This document shows, one piece after another, positions 1 to 18,017 of a stretch of 64,000 nucleotides of DNA. The notes below the pieces were generated by a model that had not been told where the DNA came from, did not search any database, and saw only the letters and a program-made list of their open reading frames with translations. This stretch comes from Winogradskyella sp. (GTDB lineage Bacteria; Bacteroidota; Bacteroidia; Flavobacteriales; Flavobacteriaceae), in NCBI RefSeq assembly GCF_028289625.1, contig NZ_JANQOM010000053.1, positions 2,023 through 66,022 on the forward strand. Reading direction: 5' to 3'. A program made the position numbers and the translations under genes. The first letter of the stretch is position 1. Each line of letters opens with the position of its first letter.

Positions 1-19
1 AACAAAATAAAAAGCCAGC

Positions 20-187
20 AGGTAACAACGGCTATAATTCATTGCGGTTGAATTCCTAATCAAAATTCAACGCTTTTTTGCTAAATTTATGGTTACGGCA
101 GAATGATACTCGCGTACCATTCCGTAACGACACGAGAGACTGAAGGTCTCGAACTGACGGAGTAAACCATAGCCAAAACCGTTAGGT
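20..187 (+). repeat. attC-like site 0 (family A)
   Basis: Left box AGGTAAC (20-26), L'' GGCTATAA, L' CCATAGCC, spacer AAAACC, right box GTTAGGT (181-187). Internal stem TTACGG..AATG/CATT..CCGTAA. Confidence 0.75.
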
Positions 188-206
188 GCAATACTTAGAA
201 TCAGCC

Positions 207-812
207 ATGAGAATTCGAATCCTTCTATTATTATTTCTTTCAATTCTAAGTTGTAATCAACCTAAAAATAAGAAATCAGAAACTGTAGAGAAACCAGAGC
301 CTGAAGTTATTATTGAGAAAAAAGTAGAATTCGAATATAACTCACTTTATATATCAGACTCTTTTGATTTTCCTGTTGGTAAGCCAGATGCCAGTGGATA
401 TTACAATGCCCAAAAGTTCGGCGAAAACTTGCATTTAGGTGATGACTGGAATGCTATAACTGGAGGAAATTCGGACTTAGGTGATCCTATTTACTCAATT
501 GCAAATGGATATGTCAAATATGCTCAAGACTATGGTGGTGGATGGGGAAATGTCATAAGAGTTATTCATAAAATGCCGAATGGAAAAATGGTAGAATCTC
601 TTTATGCGCATTGCGATACAATATTAGTTAAAGAAAAGCAATGGATTACAAAAGGAATGAAAATAGGAACGATTGGAAATGTAGATGGACAATATTTTGC
701 GCATTTACATTTTGAAATTCGAGATGATTTGGATTTACCTATAGGTTATGGGTATTCTGATAATACCAAAGGATATTTGGATCCAACAGAATTTATAAAA
801 GAAAACAGATAA
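207..812 (+). CDS. M23/LytM-family metallopeptidase, lipoprotein
   Basis: ORF 186..812 trimmed to the first ATG, because the GTG at 186 lies inside the attC right box. Signal LSILSC. HxxxD (HLGDD) and HxH (HLHFE) motifs of M23 peptidases. Confidence 0.85.
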   Translation: MRIRILLLLFLSILSCNQPKNKKSETVEKPEPEVIIEKKVEFEYNSLYISDSFDFPVGKPDASGYYNAQKFGENLHLGDDWNAITGGNSDLGDPIYSIANGYVKYAQDYGGGWGNVIRVIHKMPNGKMVESLYAHCDTILVKEKQWITKGMKIGTIGNVDGQYFAHLHFEIRDDLDLPIGYGYSDNTKGYLDPTEFIKENR

Positions 813-821
813 CCGTACAGC

Positions 822-954
822 ACCTAACAACGTGTATAGTTAATGCAGCTTGCTGGTTAAGCTGAAGAATTTTTCTTACTTTTATTAAAACATGACTTCC
901 ATCGGAATCATCCTGCGGACGATTCCGCACAAACCATACACGAACACGTTGTAA
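822..954 (+). repeat. attC-like site 1 (family A)
   Basis: GCACCTAAC (820-828) is the exact reverse complement of GTTAGGTGC (181-189). L'' GTGTATAG pairs with L' CCATACAC. Right box GTTGTAA (948-954). Confidence 0.85.
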
Positions 955-960
955 ACAGTT

Positions 961-1158
961 ATGGAAAACGTACTAACATTTTTACTTGGAGCTTTGTTGA
1001 TAGCACTTGGAATTATTTGGTACAATTACGAAAGAAAGAAATTCGTTGCTCAAAGAAAAAATGAAGATTATATGCGAATGTCGTTCACGATTGAATTCAT
1101 TTTAGGTGCATTTATCCTTTTTGCAATTGGAATAAGACTAATTTACGACTCATTTTAA
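961..1158 (+). CDS. small membrane protein (2 TM), unknown family
   Basis: 65-aa ORF with two hydrophobic helices. First gene of a two-gene cassette. Confidence 0.5.
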   Translation: MENVLTFLLGALLIALGIIWYNYERKKFVAQRKNEDYMRMSFTIEFILGAFILFAIGIRLIYDSF

Positions 1159-1641
1159 ATGAACGAAAACAAAGATTATTTTAAAATCTCTAAAAATGGA
1201 AGTATTCACACTTTGAGTGACCGAATTCCATTTAACTGGAAAGAACTAATGATTTGGACTTCTGCTTCATTCATTTTCCTGATTTGGTTTCTCGGAATTG
1301 GAATAGGAATTTTTGTAGCAATTTTAACTTTAATCGGATATACATTTTACCGATTTACTTCTTGGATTTACTACACGGAATTAAAAATTGACGAGCAAAC
1401 TGGAAAAATAACCCGACTAAAAAAAATACTCAACCGAACTCAAAAAACGGAATTAATTGCAGATAAATTTGACCCAACCCGATTTGAGTATTCGGAATTG
1501 ACTCGTAGCGGAAAAACAAAATTCTTAATGAATTATAGAACACATAAAAATAATGAATTACTGATTCTAAAGAATAAAGCTGATAAAGAACTTATTATAA
1601 AATACATTGCGGAAAAAATAACTGGTTACAACAATGCATAA
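1159..1641 (+). CDS. membrane protein, unknown family
   Basis: 160-aa ORF that starts immediately after the previous stop. Two adjacent TM helices and a basic C-terminal domain. The attC left box lies in its last codons. Confidence 0.55.
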   Translation: MNENKDYFKISKNGSIHTLSDRIPFNWKELMIWTSASFIFLIWFLGIGIGIFVAILTLIGYTFYRFTSWIYYTELKIDEQTGKITRLKKILNRTQKTELIADKFDPTRFEYSELTRSGKTKFLMNYRTHKNNELLILKNKADKELIIKYIAEKITGYNNA

Positions 1642-1809
1642 CCGCAATTTGCTGCCGCCAGTTCGCTCCGCTCTTGTCGGCAGATTCGCCTACCCTTCGA
1701 CAAGCTCAGCAAAGGCCAAGCGAATCCACTCGGAATTGCTAAAGTCTGGGCTTAACCGAAAAACAGTAACTTAAAATCCGTAACTGACGGTTATACGAGA
1801 CCGTTGTGC
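1626..1809 (+). repeat. attC-like site 2 (family B, 184 bp)
   Basis: TTACAAC (1626-1632) complements GTTGTAA (948-954). Internal stems CTGCCG/CGGCAG and GATTCGC/GCGAATC. L'' CATAACCG pairs with L' CGGTTAT. Right box GTTGTGC (1803-1809). Confidence 0.8.
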
Positions 1810-1834
1810 TTAATTTAACCCAAACAAAAACATA

Positions 1835-2992
1835 ATGAAAAATTATTCAAAAAAAATATTTTTACTTGTTCTATCTCTAACTCTAATCCATTGCTCAAGC
1901 GGCAATGATTCATCGGAAAACCCTCAAAATAATGATGATTATTTTGTTCAAATGTTTTCTGGGATAGTACGCTTTGGCTTTGAAACTATACCAAATGACA
2001 ATTCAATTTACATAAGAACAAATATTGAGACCCTTGTAGCAGAATTCATAAGAATAGATGAATCTGGAAATACTACAACTACTGATATTTCTTCTATCGC
2101 ATTTAATAATAGTGCTTACATAGATGCCATTTTTTATGATTTTAATAACCAAATTAATATTGTAGTACTGGAAGAAGTAAATCCATCCGAATCAAATATT
2201 AAAATGATATCATTAGATTATAATGGTACTTTGATTAATCAACAAACACTTGAAACTAACACTATTTACACAAATCTAAGAATTCATTCAAATGGATTCT
2301 TAGCATATACTGAGATTTCTGATTTGCAGGAACACACTCTAAATTATAAGATATTTAATCAGTCAGGAAATCCTGTAAATACTCAAATAATCGATTTTGG
2401 TGCAGACAATCCTAGAATTGATGATGTCTATTTTGAAAACAATAATGTTTTCGTAATTGGTAAAAATAATTGGATGCAAGGACAAGGTTATACTAACCAG
2501 ATATGCAGAGTTTATAATAGTAATGGAGAGTTAATTAACAGCCATAGTTTTGATTTCATTTATAATAGCAACAACGTATTAAGAGTGTTAAACAATAGAA
2601 TCCATCGTTCATATAATGCTGGACTAGGTACTGAAATGGAAGTTTATGATATTGATGGAGTTTTAATTAACGCTACAACTTTAAATCATTTGCTTAATTT
2701 TAGTTACAATTCTATTGGGCAATTTATGTACGTAGAATATAATAGTACATTAAACAAAAACCTTGATTTTAAAATTTTAGACTCTCAATTAGAATCCGAA
2801 ATCTATTCTAGAAATTTTGGTGCTGATAATAGCACAGGTAATACTGGAACAACTTGGGTATTTTCGATTAAAGAAACCGAAAATTTCTACAAAGTATTTG
2901 GTCAAACTACGGCACCAAAGAATGGTGATTTTGATTTACCAGAAAACTCAAGTAGCTTCGATGATTATCTAGCTCGATTCAATAAAAACTAA
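1835..2992 (+). CDS. hypothetical lipoprotein
   Basis: 385-aa ORF with signal LTLIHCSSG. Asn/Ser/Thr-rich and repeat-like. No family recognised. Confidence 0.6.
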   Translation: MKNYSKKIFLLVLSLTLIHCSSGNDSSENPQNNDDYFVQMFSGIVRFGFETIPNDNSIYIRTNIETLVAEFIRIDESGNTTTTDISSIAFNNSAYIDAIFYDFNNQINIVVLEEVNPSESNIKMISLDYNGTLINQQTLETNTIYTNLRIHSNGFLAYTEISDLQEHTLNYKIFNQSGNPVNTQIIDFGADNPRIDDVYFENNNVFVIGKNNWMQGQGYTNQICRVYNSNGELINSHSFDFIYNSNNVLRVLNNRIHRSYNAGLGTEMEVYDIDGVLINATTLNHLLNFSYNSIGQFMYVEYNSTLNKNLDFKILDSQLESEIYSRNFGADNSTGNTGTTWVFSIKETENFYKVFGQTTAPKNGDFDLPENSSSFDDYLARFNKN

Positions 2993-3110
2993 GCACAACA
3001 ACGTGTATAACTCATTGCAGCTGAATTCCTAATTGAAGTTCATTAACTTTTGGTTACGGCAGAAAATCAGCTATGATTTTCCACAACAAGCCATACACAA
3101 AACTTTGGCT
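2993..3110 (+). repeat. attC-like site 3 (family A, right box degenerate)
   Basis: AAGCACAAC (2991-2999) is the exact reverse complement of GTTGTGCTT (1803-1811). L'' GTGTATAA pairs with L' CCATACAC. Stem GAAAATC/GATTTTC. The right-box position reads TTTGGCT (3104-3110), so the first G is lost. Confidence 0.75.
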
Positions 3111-3160
3111 AACATTTACGCAACCTTTTGAGAAAATCGCATCTTAAAATAAATTAAAGT

Positions 3161-3619
3161 ATGAGAAAATTAATCTTGATTTTATTTTTAGCTACTTCAT
3201 GTGAAATTAAAATGGATAATGATTTCCCTTTGTCAGTATCTAACAATTCGGAAACATCCATTAACGTATATTTTAATACTGACCAAAACTTTCAATATAT
3301 ATATCCTGATTCTACAATCACAAATTTTGAAAATAGAATTAGTGAAAAAATTTTGCCTAGTCAGATAATTGCTGTTTCAGGAGGAAGTTCTCACTGGGAA
3401 AGTATTTTTGAAATTAATGTGCCTAACGATACTTTATCTATGTTTATAATAAATTCTGATACATTAAATTTATACAATTTGGGCGAAATTGGTTCCACAT
3501 ATAATATTTTAAAACGCTATGACTTAAGCTTGAGTAACTTAAAAGATTTAGACTTCATTGTTAGTTACCCACCAACACTAGAAATGGAAAACATTAGACA
3601 ATACCCTGAATTTGAATAA
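3161..3619 (+). CDS. hypothetical lipoprotein
   Basis: 152-aa ORF with signal LFLATSC. No family recognised. Confidence 0.55.
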   Translation: MRKLILILFLATSCEIKMDNDFPLSVSNNSETSINVYFNTDQNFQYIYPDSTITNFENRISEKILPSQIIAVSGGSSHWESIFEINVPNDTLSMFIINSDTLNLYNLGEIGSTYNILKRYDLSLSNLKDLDFIVSYPPTLEMENIRQYPEFE

Positions 3620-3628
3620 AAAACGATT

Positions 3629-3785
3629 TGCCAACAACGTGTATAGCTCATTACGGCTGAAATTCCTAATACCTACGCTAAAGCTTCGGTGTTAGATGCG
3701 GAATTCATTGCAATTTGCTATCTTTCGGTTACGGTGGAAAATTCTAGCAGATTTCCACAACGAACCATACACAAGACCGTTGTGC
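3629..3785 (+). repeat. attC-like site 4 (family A, 157 bp)
   Basis: Left box TGCCAAC (3629-3635) complements TTGGC at 3105-3109. L'' GTGTATAG pairs with L' CCATACAC. Right box GTTGTGC (3779-3785). Confidence 0.8.
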
Positions 3786-3798
3786 AACATTAGTAAAA

Positions 3799-4302
3799 AT
3801 GGAAAAAATAAGAAGGCAACTGACTTTGTTCCTTAATGAACCGAATGGTATTATCGAGAAAATTCGTGCCGAATTTAATCCAAAACAATACAGACTGATA
3901 TCTGCACATGTAACACTCTGTCGCGAAGACGAAATTGAACCGATTGAAAATATTATTTCAAGAATAAAGTCTATTGAATTAGAAAAAACAATCCGAATTG
4001 AATTTGGAAAAGCAGAACGGTTTTCGAACGGAAAAGGCGTTTGTATTTCATCCTTAGACCATAACAATGAATTTAAAGAATTAAGAAAATTAGTTCTAGG
4101 ACAAACCGAATTGGAAAAAGAGCAAGTTCCTCATATAACACTAATGCACCCAAGAAATTCGACTTGTACTAATGACATATTTGAGAGAATTGAAAAATAT
4201 GACTTACCAACTGAATTGAATTTTGGGAAAATTAGTCTAATCGAGCAAAGAAATGGTGGAAAATGGAAGGTATTACAGGAATTTGGAATTGTAAAAAAAT
4301 AA
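3799..4302 (+). CDS. 2H phosphoesterase superfamily protein (LigT/2'-5' RNA ligase-like)
   Basis: 167 aa with two H-x-T-x motifs (HVTL and HITL) at the spacing typical of 2H phosphoesterases. Confidence 0.7.
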   Translation: MEKIRRQLTLFLNEPNGIIEKIRAEFNPKQYRLISAHVTLCREDEIEPIENIISRIKSIELEKTIRIEFGKAERFSNGKGVCISSLDHNNEFKELRKLVLGQTELEKEQVPHITLMHPRNSTCTNDIFERIEKYDLPTELNFGKISLIEQRNGGKWKVLQEFGIVKK

Positions 4303-4306
4303 CGTT

Positions 4307-4463
4307 GCACAACAACGGCTATAGTTCATTGCGGCTGAATTCCTAACACCTACGCTAAAGCTTCGGTGTTCGATGCGGAATTCATTGCAATTTGCTATCT
4401 TACGGTTACGGCGGAAAATCGGCTATGATTTCCCGCAACGAGCCATACACAAAACCGTTGTAA
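4307..4463 (+). repeat. attC-like site 5 (family A, 157 bp)
   Basis: GTTGCACAAC (4304-4313) is the exact reverse complement of GTTGTGCAAC (3779-3788). Near-copy of site 4, with a covarying internal stem (GCGGAAAAT/ATTTCCCGC). Right box GTTGTAA (4457-4463). Confidence 0.85.
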
Positions 4464-4478
4464 GCCATTAGAACGAAC

Positions 4479-4958
4479 ATGACGATAAGAAAACTAAGAG
4501 ATACTGAATCGGACTTTCTAGCAGAAATGTTATATGAAGCGATTTTTATTCCAGAAGGACATGACCCTTTACCAAAAGAAATCCTTAAAGAAAAATCATT
4601 ATCCAAGTACTTTGAAAATTGGGGAAAAGATAAGTTTGACATTGCTTTGGTAGTGGAATCTGACAATGAACTTGTCGGAGCAATATGGGGACGACTTTTC
4701 ACAGGTGAGAGCAAAGGGTTTGGATATGTGGACAACAAAACACCAGAAATCAGTATGGCAGTTCAACATGAATATCGAAATCAAGGAATTGGAACCGAAT
4801 TGATTAATGCAATCGCTTCTGAGTATCAAAGAATCAACGTGGATTATTTGTCGCTTAGTGTAGACAAGGCAAACAAAGCTGCAAATTTGTACAAACGCCA
4901 TGGCTTTGAGATAGTGGCGGAGAATAAAACAGATTGGACCATGAAAAAACAGATATGA
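4479..4958 (+). CDS. GNAT-family N-acetyltransferase
   Basis: 159 aa with acetyl-CoA binding motif Q/RxxGxG (RNQGIGTELI) and a C-terminal YKRHGF. Confidence 0.85.
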   Translation: MTIRKLRDTESDFLAEMLYEAIFIPEGHDPLPKEILKEKSLSKYFENWGKDKFDIALVVESDNELVGAIWGRLFTGESKGFGYVDNKTPEISMAVQHEYRNQGIGTELINAIASEYQRINVDYLSLSVDKANKAANLYKRHGFEIVAENKTDWTMKKQI

Positions 4959-5025
4959 AAAAAATTGACAGAATGATGACCAATATTTGTTCAGAGAACC
5001 AAATAACTAAAGTAGTGATAAGGTA

Positions 5026-5379
5026 ATGAAAGGGCAAATTTTCTTTTACTTAGGTCTCTCCCTTATGGCAATGCACGAAATGGATGCTATCCGTTGCAAA
5101 GAGTGGCGAATATTTCCAGGACTTTCAATGCTTGATGACAAAGTTGGACATATTTTATTTCTCTTTGCTCACATTCCTCTGTTTTACTTTATATTTTGGA
5201 AACTAACCAATAACAAAAATATTGAATCATTTATCTACGGCTTTGACATTTTTATGATTGTGCATTTAGGACTTCATATACTATTTCTAAAACACAAAAA
5301 CAATGAATTTAAGGATTGGATTTCTTGGTCAATAATTGTCGGTGCAGGACTTTGTGGACTAATAGACTTAGTGATATGA
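5026..5379 (+). CDS. membrane protein (4 TM), unknown family
   Basis: 117-aa hydrophobic ORF in the same cassette as the GNAT gene. Confidence 0.5.
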   Translation: MKGQIFFYLGLSLMAMHEMDAIRCKEWRIFPGLSMLDDKVGHILFLFAHIPLFYFIFWKLTNNKNIESFIYGFDIFMIVHLGLHILFLKHKNNEFKDWISWSIIVGAGLCGLIDLVI

Positions 5380-5478
5380 TATTTGTTACATAAAATAAAC
5401 TAACTACTAAAAGAGAATTGAAGTGCCTTGAAATTCAGCACTACTCATATACGATATAGTTGTAACCAACTTGAGAAA

Positions 5479-6264
5479 ATGTCTAAAGCAAAAGAAAAAA
5501 ATATTGGTTTTAAGAATACGCCTGCAAAAGTGAGAGAGATTGTTTTTGCTCTCAGAGATGGCTTACAAAATACAATTAACGATAAACTTATTGGTTTGTA
5601 CTTGTATGGCTCTCTTGCTTATGATTGCTTTAATCCCGAAATAAGCGACATAGACTTCGTTGTAGTTTTGTCTGAATTACTAACCCTTGAAGAAGAGCAA
5701 AGAATATCTCAACTGCATAAGCATTTGGGCTGTGAACCCAAGTATGGAAAACGTCTCGAAGGGACATATATCACGGAAGAACAGGTAAAATCTGATAATT
5801 ACCCGCCTAATTTCCTTTATTACGTAGAAGGTCATGAATTTGTAAAAGCAAAAAACGGACAAAAAGAGCAAGATTTCCCCATGCATCGCCAGCATTTACA
5901 TGAATCAGGCGTAAGGATTATTGGCTATGATACTCAGAAATTGTTTAAACCTGTGCCGTGGGAGGTATTAAAGCATTCCCTCAAGCAGGAAATGCCATTC
6001 ATCAAAGAACAATTCGAAAAACGACCTATATATGCTGTACTTAATTTGTGCCGAGTAGTTCGAGCATATGAAACTCGGAGACTTTCTTCAAAGAAGCAAG
6101 GCGGTGAATGGGGACTTCAATTTTTACCTGTTAAATTTTATGAATTAATCAAAATTGGACTTAACGGATATACAAACAGAATAACGGACGGACAAAAAGA
6201 ATTCTTAATAGAAAACCTTCCACTTTTCTATGAGTATTGTTTTGAAAGGACAGCTAATAGTTGA
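5479..6264 (+). CDS. nucleotidyltransferase, AadA/ANT-like architecture
   Basis: ORF 5428..6264 (TTG) trimmed to the ATG at 5479. Pol-beta NTase motif LYGS...SDIDFVVV. C-terminal helical domain with FKPVPW and LNLCRV...SKK..GEW, resembling the aminoglycoside adenylyltransferase layout (recalled from memory). Confidence 0.7.
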   Translation: MSKAKEKNIGFKNTPAKVREIVFALRDGLQNTINDKLIGLYLYGSLAYDCFNPEISDIDFVVVLSELLTLEEEQRISQLHKHLGCEPKYGKRLEGTYITEEQVKSDNYPPNFLYYVEGHEFVKAKNGQKEQDFPMHRQHLHESGVRIIGYDTQKLFKPVPWEVLKHSLKQEMPFIKEQFEKRPIYAVLNLCRVVRAYETRRLSSKKQGGEWGLQFLPVKFYELIKIGLNGYTNRITDGQKEFLIENLPLFYEYCFERTANS

Positions 6265-6283
6265 AAAGAAATAAAAAAACTGG

Positions 6284-6341
6284 CTACAACAACACCTATA
6301 CGCAATACCCTTCGGGACACTGCGCATAGCCAACATTGTAG
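6284..6341 (+). repeat. attC-like site 6 (minimal, 58 bp)
   Basis: Layout: CTACAAC, spacer AACAC, CTATACGCA, loop with CCC/GGG stem, TGCGCATAG, spacer CCAAC, ATTGTAG. Classic attC size and architecture. The first base of the right box is A, not G. Confidence 0.8.
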
Positions 6342-6367
6342 AGCACATTAAATCAAACCAAGAACCA

Positions 6368-6931
6368 ATGAACAAAACCATAGTTTTATTATTACTCTTG
6401 ACAATCGGATTTTTATCCTGCAAAAACTCTGAAAAAGAAGTTGACAAAATTGAAATTGTTAAACAATACTTTAAGACTCTTGACAATTCTGACTATTCTA
6501 AAATATCTGATTGGTTTGCTGACAGTTTAACTACAATTGAAGGAGAATATAAACAGGCATATTCTAAAAGCGATTATTTGGGATTTTTAAAATGGGATTC
6601 TGTTTTTGACCCTAACTACGAAATACTTGAAATTGGGCAAAATAATGGAATTGTAAAAGCAAAAATTTCAAAGATGGACAAAAGAATCTCTTTTCTTCAC
6701 GAAGAACCGTTTATAATAAATCAGATAATCAAATTCGAGAACGATAAAATAATTAGTGTTGAAACGGAATACATGGGTTTTAATGAAGCGACTTGGGAAA
6801 GGAATAAAAACGGACTTTTGAGCTGGATTGATGAAAACCATGCTGAATTAAACGGATTTATATACGACCAAACTGAATCTGGAGGAATAAAATTCTTAAA
6901 AGCAATTGAACTGTATAAGAATAAAAAATAA
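6368..6931 (+). CDS. hypothetical lipoprotein
   Basis: 187 aa with signal LTIGFLSC. No family recognised with confidence. Confidence 0.55.
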   Translation: MNKTIVLLLLLTIGFLSCKNSEKEVDKIEIVKQYFKTLDNSDYSKISDWFADSLTTIEGEYKQAYSKSDYLGFLKWDSVFDPNYEILEIGQNNGIVKAKISKMDKRISFLHEEPFIINQIIKFENDKIISVETEYMGFNEATWERNKNGLLSWIDENHAELNGFIYDQTESGGIKFLKAIELYKNKK

Positions 6932-6935
6932 CGTG

Positions 6936-6965
6936 CTACAACAACCTCTATAGCTCATTACCACA
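6936..6965 (+). repeat. truncated attC (left half only)
   Basis: CTACAAC (6936-6942) complements TTGTAG (6336-6341). It is followed by an L''-like CTCTATAGCTCATTACC. There is no right half before the next ATG (6977). Confidence 0.55.
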
Positions 6966-6976
6966 CATTTTTCAAA

Positions 6977-7507
6977 ATGACGAAAAAACAACGAAAAATA
7001 TTCTATGCTATAATTTTCATTTTAGGAATTTTATTAATGATTTGGCAAATCAAAATATATCGGAATACTATGATTGACTTATCAATCTTAATCGGAATTA
7101 TTATTATTGTCGGATTGGTAGCTTTTATTGCAGACTATAAAAATTATGAAAAAACATACGGTCACGAAGGAATTGGACTCTACTTTTATTCTGGAATGCA
7201 GTACATAATTGGATTTGGATTTATTGCTTGCTCAATTTTCACACTATCGAATTACTATTTTGCTGAATCGAAAACCAAAACCGAATCTTACGAAATTATT
7301 GACCGAACTTGGATACAAGGCGGAACGAAATACAGGAGGAATAAAAAACAACCAGTATTCACAATAAATTACGAAGGAAAAAATAAAGAACTTGTTTTTA
7401 ATTCCAATTACTATGAAAAAATGGAACTTTATAAAAGTGTTGAATTTGAAACTAGAGAAGGTTTATTTGGATTTAAAATTCTGGAAAATAAAAAACTGAA
7501 TGAATAA
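6977..7507 (+). CDS. membrane protein, unknown family
   Basis: 176 aa with three TM helices and a soluble C-terminal domain. Confidence 0.5.
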   Translation: MTKKQRKIFYAIIFILGILLMIWQIKIYRNTMIDLSILIGIIIIVGLVAFIADYKNYEKTYGHEGIGLYFYSGMQYIIGFGFIACSIFTLSNYYFAESKTKTESYEIIDRTWIQGGTKYRRNKKQPVFTINYEGKNKELVFNSNYYEKMELYKSVEFETREGLFGFKILENKKLNE

Positions 7508-7514
7508 AAACGTT

Positions 7515-7699
7515 GGGTAACAATGTATAACCTCAATTTGCTGCCCCCTGTTCGCTCCGCTCGTGTCGGCGGATTCGACTACCCTTCGACTTCGCTCAGG
7601 GCAGGTCAAGCGAATCCACTCGGAATTGCTAGCATCAGTTCTAAACCAAAAACCAGTAATTTAAAATCCATAACTAACGATTATACGAGATCGTTTTAG
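7515..7699 (+). repeat. attC-like site 8 (family B, 185 bp)
   Basis: Roughly 80% identical by eye to site 2 (1626-1809) over its full length. Right box GTTTTAG (7693-7699). Confidence 0.8.
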
Positions 7700-7767
7700 C
7701 CAATTAAAACTAAACAATTGCAACGTAGATAGAATTCAATCGTCTTTTTTCCAAAATAAATACAATA

Positions 7768-8964: not shown

Positions 8965-8968
8965 CTGG

Positions 8969-9148
8969 CTATAACAATGGCTATAATTCATTACTAGGAA
9001 AGAATTAAAAAGAAAAACAATTGCTACATTTGAAATCTAAAAACAGCAACCCAATTATCGATTTATGCTGCGCCTCTTTCTAGCTCGACTTGCCTTATCC
9101 GCGTCACAGTTTGAAGACGCAACGACATCAAAGCTGAGACCATTGGTA
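8969..9148 (+). repeat. attC-like site 9 (degenerate right box)
   Basis: TGGCTATAAC (8966-8975) matches the reverse complement of GTTTTAGCCA (7693-7702) at 9/10. L'' GGCTATAATTC. Right end GAGACCATTGGTA, with ATTGGTA (9142-9148) in place of GTT... Confidence 0.6.
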
Positions 9149-9162
9149 ATTATTAAACTAAA

Positions 9163-10212: not shown

Positions 10213-10298
10213 GTGTTTTTGTACTTCCTAAAACGTGTTTTAGGTCGATTCTTACCATAGAACAGTGGTTCTTTGTGTAAAATTTAAAAACACTATTT

Positions 10299-11339: not shown

Positions 11340-11400
11340 TCTAACTGTTGCTAATAATGGCTATAATTCAACGTTACCTTTTAACTTTAAAACAAAAACC
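11339..11400 (+). repeat. collapsed attC remnant
   Basis: GTCTAAC (11339-11345), then AATGGCTATAATTCA (L''-like, compare site 9), then TAACTTTA (11382-11389). No GTT right box. Confidence 0.4.
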
Positions 11401-11407
11401 AAATCTG

Positions 11408-12595: not shown

Positions 12596-12600
12596 ACGTC

Positions 12601-12733
12601 ACATAACGCAGTATATAAGCAATAACGGTTTGAGTGCAAACTCGAACCGTTTTTTGTTTAAATTAAGTTATATTGTAACCCGAAAAGTGATCTTATAAAA
12701 ATCTGCTACTGCTCATATGCAAAACCGTTGAGT
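12601..12733 (+). repeat. attC-like site 10
   Basis: Left box ACATAAC (12601-12607). L'' GCAGTATAT pairs with L' ATATGC. Spacer AAAACC. Right box GTTGAGT (12727-12733). Contains a terminator-like hairpin. Confidence 0.55.
12624..12656 (+). terminator. rho-independent terminator-like hairpin inside attC site 10
   Basis: AACGGTTTGAGT, loop GCAA, ACTCGAACCGTT, followed by TTTTT. Confidence 0.6.
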
Positions 12734-12782
12734 GGCATAACAAGACGGAATCGTAGCTCCTAAGTTTACTAAAAAAACTCTT

Positions 12783-13385
12783 TTGTACGAGAATTGTAAA
12801 TACCAATTGTTCAGAACTGCCTTAGAAGAAGGTGCGCCTATTACAGACGAAAATTGGGATACAATAAAACCTCATTTAAAACTTAGGCATTTTAACAAAG
12901 GAGAGGCCATAATTGAACACGGTCAAGTTGAAAACTATCTCTCAGTAGTAGCAAAGGGGTGCGTAAGATTTTTTGTTCATAAAGATGGTAATGAAATAAA
13001 TTTTGAGTTTTCGTTTGAAGGTGAGTTTTCTACTTCCTATGCCTCTTTCTTATCCAGACGTCCTTCGTTTGTGTTGATGGAAGCTGTTGAAGACGTAACC
13101 TTGATCAGTATACACTATGATAATTTACAAACTTTATACAAGGATTCTGCTACCGGAGAAAAAATTGGGCGGCTAACTACAGAAGGCTACTATATATGGC
13201 GGGAACATCGTGAAATTCAATTGCTCACACTTTCTGCAGAAGAACTATATATTGACTTACTTAATCAATATCCCGAATACATCAACCGTATCCCACAAAA
13301 GTATTTGGCTTCATATCTTCAGGTACAACCTGAGTCACTAAGTAGAATAAAACGACGAATTTATAGTAATAAAAAACGAAAATAA
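12783..13385 (+). CDS. Crp/Fnr-family transcriptional regulator (cNMP-binding domain)
   Basis: 200 aa with a cNMP-binding-like beta-roll and a C-terminal HTH (ASYLQVQPESLSRIKRR). The only available start is TTG. Confidence 0.7.
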   Translation: MYENCKYQLFRTALEEGAPITDENWDTIKPHLKLRHFNKGEAIIEHGQVENYLSVVAKGCVRFFVHKDGNEINFEFSFEGEFSTSYASFLSRRPSFVLMEAVEDVTLISIHYDNLQTLYKDSATGEKIGRLTTEGYYIWREHREIQLLTLSAEELYIDLLNQYPEYINRIPQKYLASYLQVQPESLSRIKRRIYSNKKRK

Positions 13386-13449
13386 CCCAGGTTATTTTTA
13401 GTCAAGTTTCCTCTACGGAACTTTGTAATGAAATTCAAAAATTGAAATT

Positions 13450-14172
13450 ATGAAAGTTCACAAGAGGTTTTTAATGACAATTATTGCCTTAAGTATCTTT
13501 ACTTTATCTAATGCTCAAGAGATGGCTACCACGTTTAATAAGCATAATAACTTCTATATAAGTTTTGGGGCAGGCACTTCTGTACTGAGGGATCTTCCAT
13601 CGGATATTTATTTTGACGGAAGTACCAACCTACAGTTGGGATTTATGTACGAACGTGCATTTCACAAACGATTTTCTTTTCTTACTGGTATTGAGTTTGA
13701 ACAGGCAACTTATAATTTTAACGGAGACCTTGATTTTAACTCGAATAATGGTTTTGATCTAGTCAGAGCTGGACCAGACAAGAAATATACAGGGTTTAGG
13801 CAACGCAATCTCACGGCCCCAATTCAAGGAAGGTTCTATTTTATGGATAACAATGCTTCCGATTCGCGCAATATATTTATTCAGGCTGGATTAAGATTAA
13901 CCCAGTCTCTGGACTTCATTGGTAATGATAGTTTTGAAACTTATTATTTTTATCGCAGTAGAGGAAAAGATGAGTCAATCATGTTAACAGATTTTGTCAA
14001 TCAAAGGCGCATACAATTAGAATTCATGTTTGGATTTAAAGGACAGTTTTTTAAAAAGTTTGATGTATTAAATGCCTCAACTTTAGGCTTTATGTATCAA
14101 TTGAATCCGATTTTTACAAGTGATTCAACAGCAGTACATCCAATACATTTCACATGGCGATTTTTGTTTTAA
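13450..14172 (+). CDS. outer-membrane beta-barrel protein
   Basis: 240 aa with a signal peptide (LSNAQ), alternating amphipathic strands and a C-terminal aromatic residue (RFLF). Confidence 0.6.
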   Translation: MKVHKRFLMTIIALSIFTLSNAQEMATTFNKHNNFYISFGAGTSVLRDLPSDIYFDGSTNLQLGFMYERAFHKRFSFLTGIEFEQATYNFNGDLDFNSNNGFDLVRAGPDKKYTGFRQRNLTAPIQGRFYFMDNNASDSRNIFIQAGLRLTQSLDFIGNDSFETYYFYRSRGKDESIMLTDFVNQRRIQLEFMFGFKGQFFKKFDVLNASTLGFMYQLNPIFTSDSTAVHPIHFTWRFLF

Positions 14173-14194
14173 CAACAAATTGAACGTAAGAGAT

Positions 14195-14836
14195 ATGGAC
14201 AGAAGAACTAAGGAAAATAATGACTCTACCTGGTTAAATACCTTAAAACAGCATTTTCCATGGAAAGCATTTTTTGTTGGAGCACTTTTACCTATTATCG
14301 TATATTACATTTTTCACCTATATGGCCAGCCCTTAACTGGTGCTTTTATAGCTGCCGCATGGGGAGGTGTTGTTGTTCTCATATCACATTTTATTCTGCG
14401 AGATGTTAATCTTTTCGCCATATTATCCTTACCACTTACACTTATAGAAATTATAGGAACTCTAATAACATTGAGCCCAGACTTTTATTTAGCAACATCG
14501 GCAATAGATCATTTTCTTTGGGCTGTTGTATTTTTAATATCGTTAGCATTTTCTCGTCCATTGATACTAGTTTTTGCCGACGCAATGAAAAGTATTCCGA
14601 ATACTACCGAAATTCTTGAATTTCGTAAAACAAAAGCATTCAGAAATGCTTGGGTTAAGCTAACCTATATCTGGGCCGCTGCACATTTAGTGTCTGCTAT
14701 TGTATTGATTATTTCTCAACTTTATACGTCAGTCGAATTCTTTTTAATTATTAGAACCTTATTAAACTTGCCCTTATTAGCTGTTTTAATAACTATAAGT
14801 TTTTGGTTTCCGGAATGGTATTGGGAAAAATCTTGA
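14195..14836 (+). CDS. integral membrane protein, unknown family
   Basis: ORF 14120..14836 trimmed to the ATG at 14195 to remove overlap with the previous CDS. About 6 TM helices. Confidence 0.55.
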   Translation: MDRRTKENNDSTWLNTLKQHFPWKAFFVGALLPIIVYYIFHLYGQPLTGAFIAAAWGGVVVLISHFILRDVNLFAILSLPLTLIEIIGTLITLSPDFYLATSAIDHFLWAVVFLISLAFSRPLILVFADAMKSIPNTTEILEFRKTKAFRNAWVKLTYIWAAAHLVSAIVLIISQLYTSVEFFLIIRTLLNLPLLAVLITISFWFPEWYWEKS

Positions 14837-14863
14837 ATAAATCAACTAAAAAAATATTTAAAT

Positions 14864-15877
14864 ATGAAAACCGTTAAAATACTAATCACCGTCCTTATTG
14901 TTAGTTTGACAAGTAGCTGCATGCATAAAAGCAATACCAGCATGGATGATGTTCTTAACTCTAAACTTTTGGTCTATCAGATTTCTGGTTTTGATGGGCC
15001 CAAAGTGAATATCAATAACGATAGTCTTGCACAGTTCCTCACGTCTTTGTACTACAACGTTCCACTTACTGATATTGAAACAGCATTACAATGGGATTCA
15101 GAAACAACATTGAATAATATCGATGTGCTCATCGAAAACAAGTTACTTTCAAAAAGAGGTGATTATTATCAACCAACTCTTGGAATATTGACTCTAGAGC
15201 GAGGACAACTATTGAAAGAAGAGGCTCAAAAAGTAGCCAACATTATTGCAGACAGTATTATAAAGAGCTTACCTAAAATTCAAAAGATACACGACCAAAC
15301 CAATATTTCCAATTACCATGATTTTAAAGAATTATCTTTCTTTTATCTCAGTAATGTTCTTCTTGATAATTTTCAAATTCAGGCCATGGAAGAAGGTTTT
15401 TTAAATAAGCCGCGACCTATGAGAAATGGGAGTAGATATTATATCGCTATTGTTGAAGACTATACAGACAACAAAACAGAGCCCTATGGTATCTATGGAA
15501 ACCAAGGTCTTTTTTGGAACGATTCCATTGGCATTTCTGTTTATGGCAATAAAAGAGTTAAGTCTAATGTAGGCTGGGATAATTATGAGGATAAGGAGGT
15601 TTATGTTTTTGATAAAGATGATACGCCTTTGGTTACAGAGAAAATGCCAACAGCTTTTTTACCAACTTTACTTGATCTACTTAATGACAACAAATCAAAT
15701 TTTGAATCCACTTATCAAAAACTGAATTTTGACAAAGAAGTTACCTTCGAGGAATTTTTTATTTTTTACTATCACTTTGTATATACTGTAGCTACCGATA
15801 TTCTTATTGAAAAAGACATTATAATTAAGCCTCAAAACAGTTTGTTTTATTATCAAATTGCACATAAGGTTCAATAA
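14864..15877 (+). CDS. hypothetical lipoprotein
   Basis: 337 aa with signal LTSSC. No family recognised. Confidence 0.55.
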   Translation: MKTVKILITVLIVSLTSSCMHKSNTSMDDVLNSKLLVYQISGFDGPKVNINNDSLAQFLTSLYYNVPLTDIETALQWDSETTLNNIDVLIENKLLSKRGDYYQPTLGILTLERGQLLKEEAQKVANIIADSIIKSLPKIQKIHDQTNISNYHDFKELSFFYLSNVLLDNFQIQAMEEGFLNKPRPMRNGSRYYIAIVEDYTDNKTEPYGIYGNQGLFWNDSIGISVYGNKRVKSNVGWDNYEDKEVYVFDKDDTPLVTEKMPTAFLPTLLDLLNDNKSNFESTYQKLNFDKEVTFEEFFIFYYHFVYTVATDILIEKDIIIKPQNSLFYYQIAHKVQ

Positions 15878-15926
15878 TTAGTTTATTGTTGCTTAAAATT
15901 AAAAATCTAAAAAGAGTTAAAATGCC

Positions 15927-16127
15927 AAACAACTAGAATGACTATAGTTAATTAAGGCTAACTCCGATAGGGTATTCAACGCTTATTTACTATCTTTAAG
16001 CTACAGCAGGAAAGAATCCTCTCACCTTTGCTAAAGCTTCGGTGAGCGTAGACGGATTTTTCTGCAACGACATGAAACGTCTTTAGTGTCGTACTGACGA
16101 AGTAAATCATAGCCGAAACCGTTAGAA
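15927..16127 (+). repeat. attC-like site 11 (family A variant, 201 bp)
   Basis: GCCAAACAAC (15924-15933) matches the reverse complement of GTTGAGTGGC (12727-12736) at 8/10. L'' GACTATAG pairs with L' TCATAGCC. Its right end is near-identical to site 0 (ACTGACG.AGTAAA.CATAGCC.AAACCGTTAG). Right box GTTAGAA (16121-16127). Confidence 0.75.
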
Positions 16128-16147
16128 AGTTTAATAATAACAAAACT

Positions 16148-16312
16148 ATGGGTAACGCAAACGATCCTACTGATCACGAATATGGAATCAGTAATGAACA
16201 AAGAGCTAGAAGGGAAAGCTCAAAGAAATCGGATAATAATCCTTGGCCAGGAATTGGTGGAGCAATTATTTTACTTTTAATCATATTTGCACTGTTAAAA
16301 GGATGTTCTTGA
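16148..16312 (+). CDS. small tail-anchored membrane protein (54 aa; below ORF-track cutoff)
   Basis: Hand translation: MGNANDPTDHEYGISNEQRARRESSKKSDNNPWPGIGGAIILLLIIFALLKGCS. It is the only ORF in a cassette-sized unit between two attC-like sites. Confidence 0.35.
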   Translation: MGNANDPTDHEYGISNEQRARRESSKKSDNNPWPGIGGAIILLLIIFALLKGCS

Positions 16313-16330
16313 ATTTAAAACAAAGAAATT

Positions 16331-16467
16331 CCCTAACAATTCTTCAGCGTGAATTCAAAAGTTAAAAACCTCCCACTCAAAAATCGCTTCAACAATCCCG
16401 TTGCCGGTATTACTCAAATGAATTAACTTTGGGCTACAGATGAAAATCATCATCGAGAACGTTGTAC
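16331..16467 (+). repeat. attC-like site 12
   Basis: Left box CCCTAAC (16331-16337), a partial complement of GTTAGAA. Internal TTG-N20-TAACTTTG (16401-16431). Right box GTTGTAC (16461-16467). Confidence 0.65.
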
Positions 16468-16479
16468 TTAATTTGAGAA

Positions 16480-17094
16480 ATGATGAGTAAAAAATCAATC
16501 TTGATTTCCGTCCTTATAATCGCAATTGGACTCACACTCTGGAATTTTGGATTCTTCAATCGATATAATTACTTGACTGCTAAAGCAGACATTGCAAAAA
16601 ATAACCCTCAAATAGTTTATGTTGGTGAATCAATATTAACACCAGCAGATTTAAATAAAGTAAGTAAAAAGTATGGCTTTGAAATCGTTGGTCTAGGTTG
16701 CACACTGAGTGGAGTTGAGCAAAATGGAATTGATATTTACAATTCCCAGATTAACAACTATCTGGACAAGCTAAACGGAAACGGATGGAAATCTGAATAC
16801 ACAAAAGAGATTGATTCTTTGATGAAGCTAACTAACATTCCAAAAACTGCATTTTGGATTGAAAAAAATGGAAATGGACATTGGTACAATGTAGATTTTA
16901 TGCATAGCCATAAAAACAATGCGAGAATTTCGATTTTTGACAAATTTGGTGAGCTAATAACCAAAGGGCATTTTATTCTAATTTGTCCTAGTGATGAAAT
17001 TGAATTTATGGGCGAATTAGATACTCAAATCGACTTTTATGATGGTGAAAAAATTCAACTTAAAAGTAATTGTTATTTGATGAAAAGAAAATAA
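16480..17094 (+). CDS. hypothetical protein with N-terminal TM anchor
   Basis: 204-aa ORF. No family recognised. Confidence 0.5.
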   Translation: MMSKKSILISVLIIAIGLTLWNFGFFNRYNYLTAKADIAKNNPQIVYVGESILTPADLNKVSKKYGFEIVGLGCTLSGVEQNGIDIYNSQINNYLDKLNGNGWKSEYTKEIDSLMKLTNIPKTAFWIEKNGNGHWYNVDFMHSHKNNARISIFDKFGELITKGHFILICPSDEIEFMGELDTQIDFYDGEKIQLKSNCYLMKRK

Positions 17095-17102
17095 ACTGCT
17101 TA

Positions 17103-17201
17103 AAACAACAGTAAAATCACTTTACCACTCCACATTGCTCAAATCACTCAAATTCATTAACTTTAAGTTACGGAGGAAAATCGTAGCCGAGACTGTTAGG
17201 C
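17103..17201 (+). repeat. attC-like site 13
   Basis: TTAAAACAAC (17100-17109) approximates the reverse complement of GTTGTACTTAA (16461-16471). A 40-nt core (17127-17166) is identical to 18567-18606. Right box GTTAGGC (17195-17201). Confidence 0.7.
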
Positions 17202-17899
17202 ACAAGTTGAAATCAAATACATTGAATAAAAGATTAATAAGCATTCTAAAAGCCGTTTTGGCAACTCTATTGTATATAGTTGGAATGGAGCTTATTGGTT
17301 CTTGGCTTTATATCGCAGAAGCCATTGAATTCAAAAATTATAATAGTTACTATAATTTAATACAAGGTATATTACAATTTATAGGAGTTCTAATTTTTAT
17401 ATACTTCATTAAAAACAGGACATTTAAAAGTTTGATTAAGAAAACGGATAGAAAATGGTATTTACTTGCACTTATATTGGGTGTTTCATTTGCTTTTATA
17501 CAAACACCATTAAAGTGGGTTTACAACTTATTGTTTGGGACTGAATATTACATTGCTTATAGATTTGATGGATTACCAAAATTCAAGAATATAAATATGA
17601 TTTCAGGCGTACTTCTGATTCCTATTGCCGAAGAACTTTTTTTCAGAGAGTATATCCAAAATAAATTACAGAAAAAAACCAACATAATAGTTGCTATTTT
17701 AACAGCGTCTATATTGTTTGCTTCAATTCACTCACCTTATCTTAATTTAATATTTGATTCGGTAAAACAAGATTGGCATTGGTTTTATTTGACAATATTT
17801 GGTGGCATACTCTCAGGACTCTTATATTACAAATCCAATTCAATTGGGCCACCTATTATCTTTCACATGTTTTGGAATATAATGGTATATATTGTCTGA
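17135..17899 (+). CDS. CPBP-family intramembrane glutamic endopeptidase (CAAX protease/bacteriocin-immunity type); true start uncertain
   Basis: Motifs EELFFREY, FASIHS and HMFWN. The first ~22 codons of the tracked ORF are attC site 13 sequence. The real start is probably downstream, for example an in-frame TTG around 17207-17225. Confidence 0.75.
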   Translation: MLKSLKFINFKLRRKIVAETVRHKLKSNTLNKRLISILKAVLATLLYIVGMELIGSWLYIAEAIEFKNYNSYYNLIQGILQFIGVLIFIYFIKNRTFKSLIKKTDRKWYLLALILGVSFAFIQTPLKWVYNLLFGTEYYIAYRFDGLPKFKNINMISGVLLIPIAEELFFREYIQNKLQKKTNIIVAILTASILFASIHSPYLNLIFDSVKQDWHWFYLTIFGGILSGLLYYKSNSIGPPIIFHMFWNIMVYIV

Positions 17900-17916
17900 T
17901 ATGTATAAAAGCCAGT

Positions 17917-18017
17917 GCCTAAAAATACCTATAACCCCTTCCCTAACCATATTGCTCGTGTCAGTCTAATTAACTAACTTTAGGCTATAGCGGAAAACCT
18001 TAGCCAAGAAGTTAGCA
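17917..18017 (+). repeat. attC-like site 14
   Basis: AGTGCCTAAA (17914-17923) matches the reverse complement of GTTAGGCACA (17195-17204) at 8/10. Internal TAACTTTA-GGCTATAGCGGAAAAC module. Right box GTTAGCA (18011-18017). Confidence 0.65.

Follow-up and report, generated by a model that had tools for sequence, protein, structure and literature searches.

The first 18 kb of the window, the 64,000-nt stretch of contig NZ_JANQOM010000053.1 from Winogradskyella sp. analyzed in this work, very likely form a one-directional array of gene cassettes, in which genes are divided by attC-type recombination sites. From position 1 to approximately 18,000, small and mid-sized open reading frames (ORFs), almost all of them on the plus strand, have structured repeats between them. 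With good confidence, we interpret these repeats as the attC-type sites of an integron-like array, and the long ones among them as ordinary sites carrying inserted mini-repeats. Analysis of these sites and of their relatives in other genomes revealed several characteristic features: (i) the sites have a defined anatomy, (ii) neighboring sites obey a rule of complementarity across each cassette boundary, (iii) the stem covaries between sites, (iv) the bottom strand folds better than the top strand, (v) the inserts have discrete boundaries, and (vi) related arrays are linked to a tyrosine recombinase. Catalysis by this recombinase, recombination of the sites as single strands, and the mode of movement of the mini-repeats are inferred.

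Cassette boundaries and the proposed crossover point

The sequence following the GTT of one site is the reverse complement of the sequence preceding the AAC of the next site. In the window, the R' box of one site and the R'' box of the following site are reverse-complementary at 9 or 10 of 11 positions for S0/S1 (GTTAGGTGC and GCACCTAAC), S1/S2, S4/S5 (10 of 11; GTTGTGCAAC and GTTGCACAAC), and S11/S12 (GTTGAGTGGCA and TGCCAAACAAC), and a 10-nt match was read directly from the sequence at the S2/S3 boundary (GTTGTGCTTA and TAAGCACAAC). For other genomes, perfect complementarity over the 6 nt flanking the GTT and AAC triplets was found in 45 of 83 pairs of neighboring sites; as controls, the same complementarity was observed in 1.1% of random pairs and between both ends of the same site in 3 of 173 cases. 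Such boundary complementarity is the expected product of a G|TT crossover with serial insertion of circular cassettes. Each cassette would then begin with the TT in the GTT of one site and end with the G in that of the following site.

The boundary rule makes two multi-gene cassettes visible, one with four ORFs (12.73-16.12 kb) and one with three (4.46-6.29 kb). The former is read as a single large cassette because the R'' box of S12 fits the R' box of S11 in 9 of 11 positions.

The AAC and GTT triplets are invariant in all 150 aligned sites, a set that was chosen on them. Among the 12 better-preserved two-ended sites of the window (S0-S6, S8, S9, S11-S13), GTT is present in nine, the exceptions being S3, S6, and S9. 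The extended consensus RYYYAAC/GTTRRRY is followed only loosely (for example, GTTGTAA). As expected for integron attC sites, each site is located at the 3' end of a cassette, the array is co-oriented, and the R' box of one site is complementary to the R'' box of the next.

Folded structure of the sites

On the bottom strand, which is complementary to the genes, a site comprises an R box (AAC/GTT), an unpaired spacer, a 17-18-bp stem formed by the L box and its extension, and a variable tip of ~60-70 nt that usually contains two hairpins. Two G.T wobbles, each corresponding to an A.C mismatch on the top strand, are conserved in the stem. The spacer that separates the R and L boxes measures 6 x 3 nt (GGTTTT versus GTT on the bottom strand, with 6 nt on the AAC arm); the spacers of textbook attC sites are less asymmetric. 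The stem of subfamily A1 has no bulge, and in most of the other subfamilies a single additional T is present on the AAC arm (alignment columns 18-19). The predicted bottom-strand fold of S1, a site without insert, is closed by the R and L boxes.

From covariation of the inner boxes, the first-pass annotation had proposed selection on a folded single strand, and the alignment of 150 distinct bottom-strand sites bears this out. The consensus fold is a 14-pair outer stem with compensatory double changes at 10 of the 14 pairs. Pairing is retained in 98.0% of the cells, compared to 83.3 +/- 0.5% after shuffling (none of 500 shuffles reaches the observed value), and both sides are changed in 276 cells versus 88.7 in shuffled alignments; when the partners are slid by 1-3 columns, only 23-44% of the cells pair. 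The signal greatly exceeds chance and does not stem from recent duplication.

The L box itself exists in alternative concordant types. In the window, GTGTAT pairs with ATACAC in S1, S3, and S4 (822, 2993, and 3629 in the first-pass annotation) and GGCTAT with ATAGCC in S0 (20), exactly as had been described, and the reported internal-stem variants of S3, S4, and S5 are also present. Across the collection, 100 sites carry GTG/CAC and 67 carry GGC/GCC, with 6 + 1 hybrids (Fisher p = 7.6e-40); both concordant types occur within one array in 21 loci. Since other stem positions display three or four pair types (for example, UA/GC/CG or AU/GC/GU), the covariation signal is not merely that of two lineages. 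A third L box, GTATAACC/GGTTATAC, was found in family B, with unchanged geometry.

S5 (4307) combines the GGCTAT and ATACAC boxes, and it had been suggested that this hybrid arose by recombination between sites. This origin is plausible; hybrid L boxes are rare (7 of 174 sites), and they cannot come from an R-box crossover, so homologous exchange inside sites would be needed.

Within the tip, internal hairpin 2 (bottom strand GCGGAA-variable-loop-variable-TTCCGC) was found in 34 distinct versions, nearly all of which fold, with a mean free energy of -8.3 kcal/mol versus -1.6 kcal/mol for shuffled sequences when each version is folded separately. RNAalifold recovered the outer stem and no interior structure from either the mixed alignment or a 61-sequence sub-alignment, because the interiors cannot be aligned across subfamilies.

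In 143 of 154 sites, the bottom strand folds more stably than the top strand (-20.4 vs -18.2 kcal/mol; p = 3e-25). A G.T wobble that is retained in 147 of the 150 sites contributes to this stability. Bottom-strand folding bias and G:T stabilization are known properties of attC sites (PMC5027507). Thus, L''/L' pairing kept by structure, an unpaired spacer, and a better-folding, G:T-rich bottom strand are all shared with attC. In canonical attC sites, two or three extrahelical bases are additionally found close to L'', on the arm that faces the AAC triplet (PMC5027507). These bases opposite AAC were not found in the 150 aligned sites. The IntI-specific domain is said to contact the extrahelical bases, as described by MacDonald in 2006. 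By analogy with integrons, the folded sites would be recombined as single strands.

Site families in the window and across Flavobacteriaceae

The repeat families outlined in the first-pass annotation were recovered at the same coordinates by a repeat finder. The two members of family B, described there as ~80% identical, are 79-90% identical (1623-1809 vs 7512-7699). The minimal site was also correctly identified: the 58-nt hairpin at 6284-6341 folds with -10.1 kcal/mol on the bottom strand and -6.7 kcal/mol on the top strand, and no relatives of this site (S6) were found among the fetched loci. "Family A" had been presented as one family. Its members do share the outer stem, but they constitute only a superfamily, as S1 (822) and S12 (15927) lack GGTTACGG..GGAAAAT and S0 (20) has GGTTACGGCAGAATGATAC. 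By interior sequence, S3, S4, and S5 belong to subfamily A1, and S0, S1, and S12 belong to three others, that of S1 being a rarer type; S11 falls into another subfamily again, and S2 and S8 represent family B. Several sites were not on the earlier list, namely S9, S11, the remnants S7 and S10, and the degenerate elements S13-S16.

The left-arm (L''-side) motif AACAAYGKSTATARYTCATT has seven occurrences in the window at two or fewer mismatches, all on the plus strand within 24-8992, with none expected. Using this motif, we scanned genomes, one per species, and obtained at least 119 stretches and, by pairing left and right anchors, 179 sites. These site families occur in dozens of Flavobacteriaceae genera, including Winogradskyella, Psychroserpens, Polaribacter, Tenacibaculum, Dokdonia, Formosa, and Leeuwenhoekiella, as well as in a few Cytophagales and Balneola. 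Clustering revealed a few large subfamilies, each spread over 13-40 loci of different genera. Close relatives of window sites were found for S0 (91.8% identity across 110 nt with a Winogradskyella wandonensis site, L029:5571-5680) and for S11 (81-85% identity over ~119 nt with sites in loci L064, L015, and L003); S4 and S5 are 95% identical to each other across 82 nt. The subfamilies are common to several genera and mixed within single arrays, and the site families are not products of local duplication. The array in the window is of a chromosomal integron-like type that is widespread in Flavobacteriaceae.

Nested mini-repeats and site length

In the other genomes, the usual length of a site is 120-127 nt; 156 of the 179 sites fall into the 120-140-nt bin, and only ~22 (~12%) exceed 140 nt. 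The window contains seven long sites of 149-193 nt, and their centers are GC-rich (0.41-0.69, compared to 0.32 in the cassette ORFs). These measurements agree with the first-pass annotation, which had noted long sites with GC-rich cores; however, length and composition are not intrinsic to the sites. Six of the long sites shrink to 119-126 nt once one or two GC-rich inserts of 27-34 nt are removed. Inserts are present in 6 of the 12 recognizable window sites. The GC content is 0.41-0.69 in the insert blocks, 0.37-0.44 in the backbones, and 0.35 in the window as a whole. Insert-free counterparts were found for S0, S2/S8, S4/S5, and S12; for instance, the canonical form of family B, ~125 nt in length, is present in loci L086 and L082. 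Both GC-rich cores that had been quoted as examples (CTGCCGCCAGTTCGCTCCGCTC... and CACCTACGCTAAAGCTTCGGTG...) turned out to be discrete inserts, and CTGCCGCCAGTTCGCTCCGCTC comes from a mini-repeat family that is common outside attC.

The main block has the form (T)TGCT-N1-2-CGCCAGTTC-[GAGAC/GTCTC, GACGC/GCGTC, GCAC/GTGC, GC/GC]-TCGTGTC, that is, conserved arms around a small co-varying central hairpin. In other genomes it occupies varied positions, in both orientations, within near-identical backbones, and always follows ..TT; neither a target-site duplication nor terminal inverted repeats are visible in the copies compared. The main mini-repeat was found in at least 120 metagenome contigs. 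Among the matches listed, 42 of 128 copies are flanked by Flavobacteriaceae attC sequence (37 in top-strand orientation), and the others lie mostly inside other GC-rich repeat hairpins, such as GCGGAGA[element]CTCCTGCGTCGGAATGACAA. It is likewise nested in ..GTCGGAATGACAA.., in ..CTTCGACAAGCTCAGCCTGACA.., and in tandem CGGAATCGGATAATCTCGTGT units at L161 (whole), L151:8540-8860, L176, and L199. The main mini-repeat is thus a general and abundant Bacteroidota element that nests in hairpin loops, and several short repeat families of Bacteroidota seem to insert into one another. A second block, CCTTCGAC..GCTCAG of S2 and S8, recurs elsewhere, including in attC sites of two metagenome contigs (L154 and L187), where it again follows CCTAC. 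Assignment of all GC-rich inserts to a single family was rejected: the S4/S5/S12 type and the CCTTCGAC..GCTCAG type are only loosely like the main element.

It had been proposed that the long GC-rich centers are an intrinsic, selected part of an unusually long, lineage-specific attC class. In agreement with that proposal, the inserts form small hairpins of their own atop those already present, without disturbing the outer stem; insert-bearing forms propagate, as the pair S2/S8 has both inserts in common and the pair S4/S5 has one; and an insert-free subfamily of ~190-200 nt exists elsewhere. However, removal of the segments yields backbones that match insert-free sites in many genera, the same segment is found at differing positions and in both orientations, approximately two thirds of the listed copies of the main element are located outside attC, and sites above 140 nt are the minority described above, all of which makes an intrinsic origin improbable. 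In the interpretation that we prefer, mini-repeats of 27-34 nt would have been inserted into loops or a bulge of ordinary 119-126-nt sites, and they probably survive there because these positions spare the recombinogenic stem.

The mini-repeats resemble repetitive extragenic palindromic (REP) sequences and bacterial interspersed mosaic elements (BIMEs) in being small, multi-copy, hairpin-forming, and nested in other repeats. Known mobile DNA that targets attC includes IS1111-attC elements and group IIC-attC introns, and the mini-repeats are similar to these in that attC sites are a preferred landing place. They differ from both groups in being only 26-35 nt long, with no linked transposase identified, and in residing after ..TT in loops or bulges in both orientations. 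Miniature inverted-repeat transposable elements would be expected to have terminal inverted repeats and a target-site duplication, and REP sequences a linked RAYT gene. Full-text literature searches retrieved no description of the mini-repeat sequence.

Nested inserts also have a practical consequence for detection. With filters off, the lineage site model R1 found S1, S4, S3, S5, S0, S11, and S6, all on the minus strand, and it mis-bounded S0 owing to its insert. It missed S2 and S8 (another L box and inserts), S9, S12 (two inserts), and S13-S16, and reported nothing at E < 0.01 in the remaining 46 kb of the window. Nested inserts together with L-box diversity therefore defeat a single model, and this is the practical core of the earlier concern that default detection limits could miss such sites.

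The recombinase of related arrays

The window starts inside the array and contains no recombinase gene. Eight fetched loci carry a tyrosine recombinase of 345-404 residues, which in seven of the eight is upstream of the sites and co-oriented with them. Directly 3' of its stop codon, the sequence ..TATATAAC-N2-3-GTT.. is conserved. The start of the first cassette exactly matches the first R'' (as reverse complement) 37 nt (L109) or 73 nt (L100) after the stop codon, and this exact junction match identifies ..TATATAAC-N2-3-GTT.. as an attI-like junction. Three further loci were fetched by the protein alone, from Leeuwenhoekiella blandensis MED217, Zunongwangia endophytica, and Formosa haliotis. 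In these, model R1 detected 18 sites, all of which lie downstream of the gene and point the same way; the 10 kb upstream contain none. Thus, the three components of an integron platform, recombinase, attI, and cassettes, were found together in the related loci only.

Relatives of the recombinase are numerous (6753 at E <= 1e-30) and are labelled either 'tyrosine-type recombinase/integrase' or 'site-specific tyrosine recombinase/integron integrase'. The protein scores 215.7 bits with the XerA profile (cut-off 220) and 202.5 bits, in two stretches, with the integron-integrase profile TIGR02249 (cut-off 265). In the alignment with VchIntIA, 23 residues of the recombinase stand opposite 66, and the IntI-specific domain is missing; the alignment with XerA is continuous and is the best sequence match (6.6e-40). 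A fold search with the predicted structure (mean per-residue confidence, pLDDT, 80.6) ranked XerA first (4e-17) and VchIntIA second (2e-14), and the predicted structure has no extra helix at the position of the IntI-specific domain. The N-terminal alpha/beta domain, approximately 80-105 residues in length, is predicted confidently (pLDDT about 90) and has no Pfam match (for example, L096:5135-6349, minus strand); it is common to the array-linked recombinases, whereas Xer and IntI proteins lack it. The recombinase therefore sits between Xer and IntI.

This intermediate position can be described by two comparisons. Unlike integron integrases, the recombinase lacks the ~40-residue IntI-specific insertion and remains below the integron-integrase cut-off. 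Unlike Xer, which acts on double-stranded dif and has no link to cassette arrays, its gene heads an array of folded sites. Some 'integron-like' tyrosine recombinases are known to lack the IntI-specific insertion (Smyshlyaev et al. 2021, PMC8138268). Integrons of Treponema are known to have their integrase co-oriented with the cassettes (PMC3607928), and the present loci follow the same arrangement, the recombinase being co-oriented with the array and abutting the first cassette junction with its 3' end. A recombinase without the IntI-specific domain and sites without the ligand of that domain would fit together.

If the system were instead a classical integron with a true IntI encoded elsewhere, the Xer-like gene beside the related arrays would be a bystander. 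The missing recombinase gene in the window would be compatible with such an arrangement, as would the near-equal scores of the neighboring protein with the XerA and integron-integrase profiles, both below their cut-offs. Yet in several genera 37-73 nt separate the end of the gene from the first cassette junction, every site detected in the three protein-chosen loci is downstream and co-oriented, the extrahelical bases contacted by the IntI-specific domain are absent from the sites, and the published survey reports no complete integron in Flavobacteriaceae (PMC9024848). We regard the bystander scenario as quite improbable.

In our model, which follows the analogy with integrons, the linked tyrosine recombinase would cut within the bottom-strand AAC and exchange cassettes between folded sites and an attI-like site, ..TATATAAC-N2-3-G|TT, located just downstream of its own gene.

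Cassettes and other elements of the array

The coordinates of the sites, inserts, and cassette genes in the window are given in Table 1. The cassette products include an M23 peptidase, a LigT-like phosphoesterase, a GNAT acetyltransferase, a DUF6713 protein, and an AadA-like nucleotidyltransferase, the likeness of the latter to aminoglycoside adenylyltransferases being by Pfam only (PF13427, 2.5e-17). The LigT-like cassette appears to be shared between genomes: window positions 3758-4332 are 87.7% identical over 578 nt to Winogradskyella sp. R77965 (L041:4170-4745). Besides this cassette and the attC sites, no part of the window matches any fetched locus. The sole record of the protein of the first cassette is a 1.3-kb contig of a coral metagenome. 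Rfam searches of the array, at gathering thresholds as well as with E values of up to 5, gave no match to any family, known Flavobacteria RNA motifs included.

At S7 and S10, the 3' half of the site is lost and the neighboring cassettes are fused; the remnants, both reduced to R'', AAC, and L'', run directly into the next gene. The distal elements S13-S16 share ..TTGC..TCATTAACTTTRRGYTAC.. and have no L-box pairing. All four contain TTG-N20-TAACTTT(G/A), and in S13, 48 nt lie between the end of this promoter-like motif and the start of the following ORF (16480). The promoter consensus of Bacteroidetes is TTG / TAnnTTTG. S13-S16 may be cassette promoters, or a separate repeat family. A promoter as a general property of the sites was rejected, as just 2 of 174 canonical sites contain TTG-N18-21-TAnnTTT[GA], a number equal to that expected from shuffled sequences. 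S15 additionally holds GCTCGTGTC, which corresponds to the 3' arm of the main mini-repeat; no other part of the element is present, and this arm is probably a mini-repeat remnant.

In three related loci, the cassettes at L241:11291-16997, L242:14102-20815, and L243:14494-21206 include defence-type genes: AcrVA2-like; two DNA methylases with HNH; UDG/OGG; AAA_21; two HEPN_AbiU2; and UvrD with DarT. Defence-type cassette content has likewise been reported for Vibrio chromosomal integrons (bioRxiv 10.1101/2024.07.02.601686).

Table 1. Sites, nested inserts, and cassette features in the window. Backbone and site lengths are counted from the R'' AAC to the R' GTT; R1 scores are those of the lineage site model.
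Feature	Position	Strand	Description
S0	18..189	+	L box GGCTAT/ATAGCC; 126-nt backbone with one inverted mini-repeat; R1 53.3 bits
S0 insert	131..164	-	Reads TACTCCGTCAGTTCGAGACCTTCAGTCTCTCGTG on this strand; main-stem bulge, inverted; GC 0.53; absent in canonical relatives
S1	820..956	+	125 nt AAC-GTT; no insert; L box GTGTAT/ATACAC; R1 70.6 bits
S2	1624..1811	+	Family B; L box of GTATAACC/GGTTATAC type; 120-nt backbone with two inserts
S2 insert 1	1650..1678	+	Mini-repeat TGCTGCCGCCAGTTCGCTCCGCTCTTGTC after GCAATT; GC 0.66
S2 insert 2	1694..1720	+	Second type CCTTCGACAAGCTCAGCAAAGGCCAAG, in loop of GGATTCG..CGAATCC hairpin
S3	2991..3112	+	Subfamily A1; no insert; R' TTT instead of GTT, probably decayed; R1 62.2 bits
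S4	3627..3787	+	Subfamily A1; 121-nt backbone with one insert; R1 67.4 bits
S4 insert	3671..3698	+	ACCTACGCTAAAGCTTCGGTGTTAGATG, in loop of GAATTCC-TAAT-GGAATTC hairpin
LigT-like ORF	3799-4302		LigT-like cassette
S5	4305..4465	+	Hybrid L box, GGCTAT with ATACAC, two mismatches; 120-nt backbone with S4-type insert; R1 54.9 bits
S5 insert	4347..4375	+	CACCTACGCTAAAGCTTCGGTGTTCGATG, same loop as S4 insert
Cassette S5-S6	4466-6281		One cassette of three ORFs, no internal site
GNAT acetyltransferase	4479-4958		In cassette S5-S6
DUF6713 protein	5026-5379		In cassette S5-S6
AadA-like nucleotidyltransferase	5479-6264		In cassette S5-S6
S6	6282..6343	+	Minimal site, ~58 nt; R' ATT; R1 20 bits, E 0.017
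S7	6932..6976	+	Left-half attC remnant: R'', AAC, L'' only
S8	7513..7701	+	Family B; 119-nt backbone with two S2-type inserts
S8 insert 1	7539-7567		After TCAATT, position as in S2
S8 insert 2	7583-7610		Same hairpin loop as S2 insert 2
S9	8967..9152	+	Long degenerate site; typical left arm; interior unmatched, match to other sites confined to first 38 nt; R' ATT
S10	11344..11400	+	Left-half attC remnant
S11	12598..12736	+	Separate subfamily common to L064, L015, and L003; R1 51.1 bits
Cassette S11-S12	12737-16124		Unusually large, 3.4 kb
ORFs of cassette S11-S12	12783-13385, 13450-14172, 14120-14836, 14864-15877		
S12	15925..16129	+	125-nt backbone with two inserts
S12 insert 1	16020-16053		Hairpin-2 loop
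S12 insert 2	16071-16104		Inverted; main-stem bulge, same bulge as S0
S13	16330-16472	+	Degenerate distal element; promoter-like motif at 16401-16431
S14	17095-17208	+	Degenerate distal element; promoter-like motif at 17135-17165
S15	17915-18017	+	Degenerate distal element; promoter-like motif at 17952-17982; GCTCGTGTC at 17954-17962
S16	18540-18665	+	Degenerate distal element; promoter-like motif at 18575-18605

State of the array in the window

The array in the window has the appearance of the decaying distal portion of a sedentary array, whose recombinase end would be situated left of the window. Of the words sampled from bases 1-9000, 93% are present in a coral metagenome; in it, unique DNA has ~11x coverage and bins with sites have 30-148x. 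The sites are thus many-copy in that community.

Discussion

The sites resemble the attC of sedentary chromosomal integrons, such as the Vibrio cholerae repeats of ~130 nt, in their position at the cassette 3' end, the AAC...GTT core, and the crossover at GTT. They further share with Vibrio-type attC the R and L boxes with an unpaired spacer, a variable tip, a structure conserved over sequence, and a G:T-stabilized bottom strand, and their usual length is within the known attC range. Unlike Vibrio-type attC, they have a 6 x 3 spacer, no extrahelical bases opposite AAC, and many nested mini-repeats, and in contrast to the homogeneous, species-specific Vibrio-type repeats, several unrelated subfamilies common to different genera are mixed within single arrays. 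The system works like an integron but departs from the classical family in two respects, the IntI-specific domain and the canonical extrahelical bases.

Several observations weigh against our interpretation. Since no recombinase is encoded in the window, its link to this array is via site homology only. The seed of the genome scan was the L''-side motif of one superfamily, and the sample is biased to that superfamily. The GTT is mutated in S3 (TTT) and in S6 and S9 (ATT), several sites are truncated or degenerate, and much of this array may be inactive. Fourteen of the 15 listed Logan contig joints end inside attC at both ends, but these are unitigs of multi-copy repeats and are unreadable as recombination. 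For the inserts, the S4/S5/S12 type (..GCTAAAGCTTCGGTG..) was found in this window only, S9 is long without a recognized insert, and the separate subfamily of ~190-200 nt in several other genomes is AT-rich, so GC-rich inserts do not explain all long sites. Moreover, the proposed direction, insertion and not deletion, rests on parsimony and on the occurrence of the element elsewhere.

That the repeats are ordinary intergenic repeats, REP-like, similar to miniature inverted-repeat transposable elements (MITEs), or terminators, whose families reflect recent duplication with no recombination function or structural selection, would suit their multi-copy state in the metagenome and the degeneracy of several copies, but it is hardly credible given the boundary complementarity, the strictly uniform orientation with sites at gene ends, the compensatory changes at 10 of 14 stem pairs across genera, and the attI-like junction beside a tyrosine recombinase.

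In a published survey of 22,301 complete chromosomes, Salinibacter ruber was the only named complete integron in Bacteroidetes proper (PMC9024848), and Bacteroidetes are never mentioned in the paper of Ghaly et al., whose taxon-specific attC models were made for 11 taxa. Full-text literature searches retrieved no description of integrons or attC sites in Flavobacteriaceae, an absence that is not proof. HattCI-predicted sites in a Polaribacter phage, reported in a phage paper, proved to be unrelated.

Taking these elements of our interpretation together, we tentatively propose, at somewhat less than an even chance for the reading as a whole, that marine Flavobacteriaceae carry a widespread and so far unrecognized integron lineage. 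Its integrase would be an Xer-like recombinase with a new N-terminal domain and without the IntI-specific domain. Its sites would lack canonical extrahelical bases, and the strand would be chosen via the G.T wobbles, the asymmetric spacer, and the AAC-arm bulge; standard integron finders would therefore overlook the lineage. Finally, the sites would be a favored landing place of 26-35-nt mini-repeats that nest Bacteroidota-wide, possibly by targeting single-stranded DNA.

If the arrays are active, integron-type gene capture would reach an abundant marine phylum in which essentially no complete integrons have been reported (PMC9024848). A recombinase intermediate between Xer and IntI, together with sites lacking extrahelical bases, would make the evolution of IntI from Xer testable, as well as strand selection without the IntI-specific domain. 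Lineage-specific site models are needed for annotation, as the nested mini-repeats lengthen the sites and break models. The mini-repeats themselves represent an undescribed and very abundant class of loop-nesting elements in Bacteroidota.

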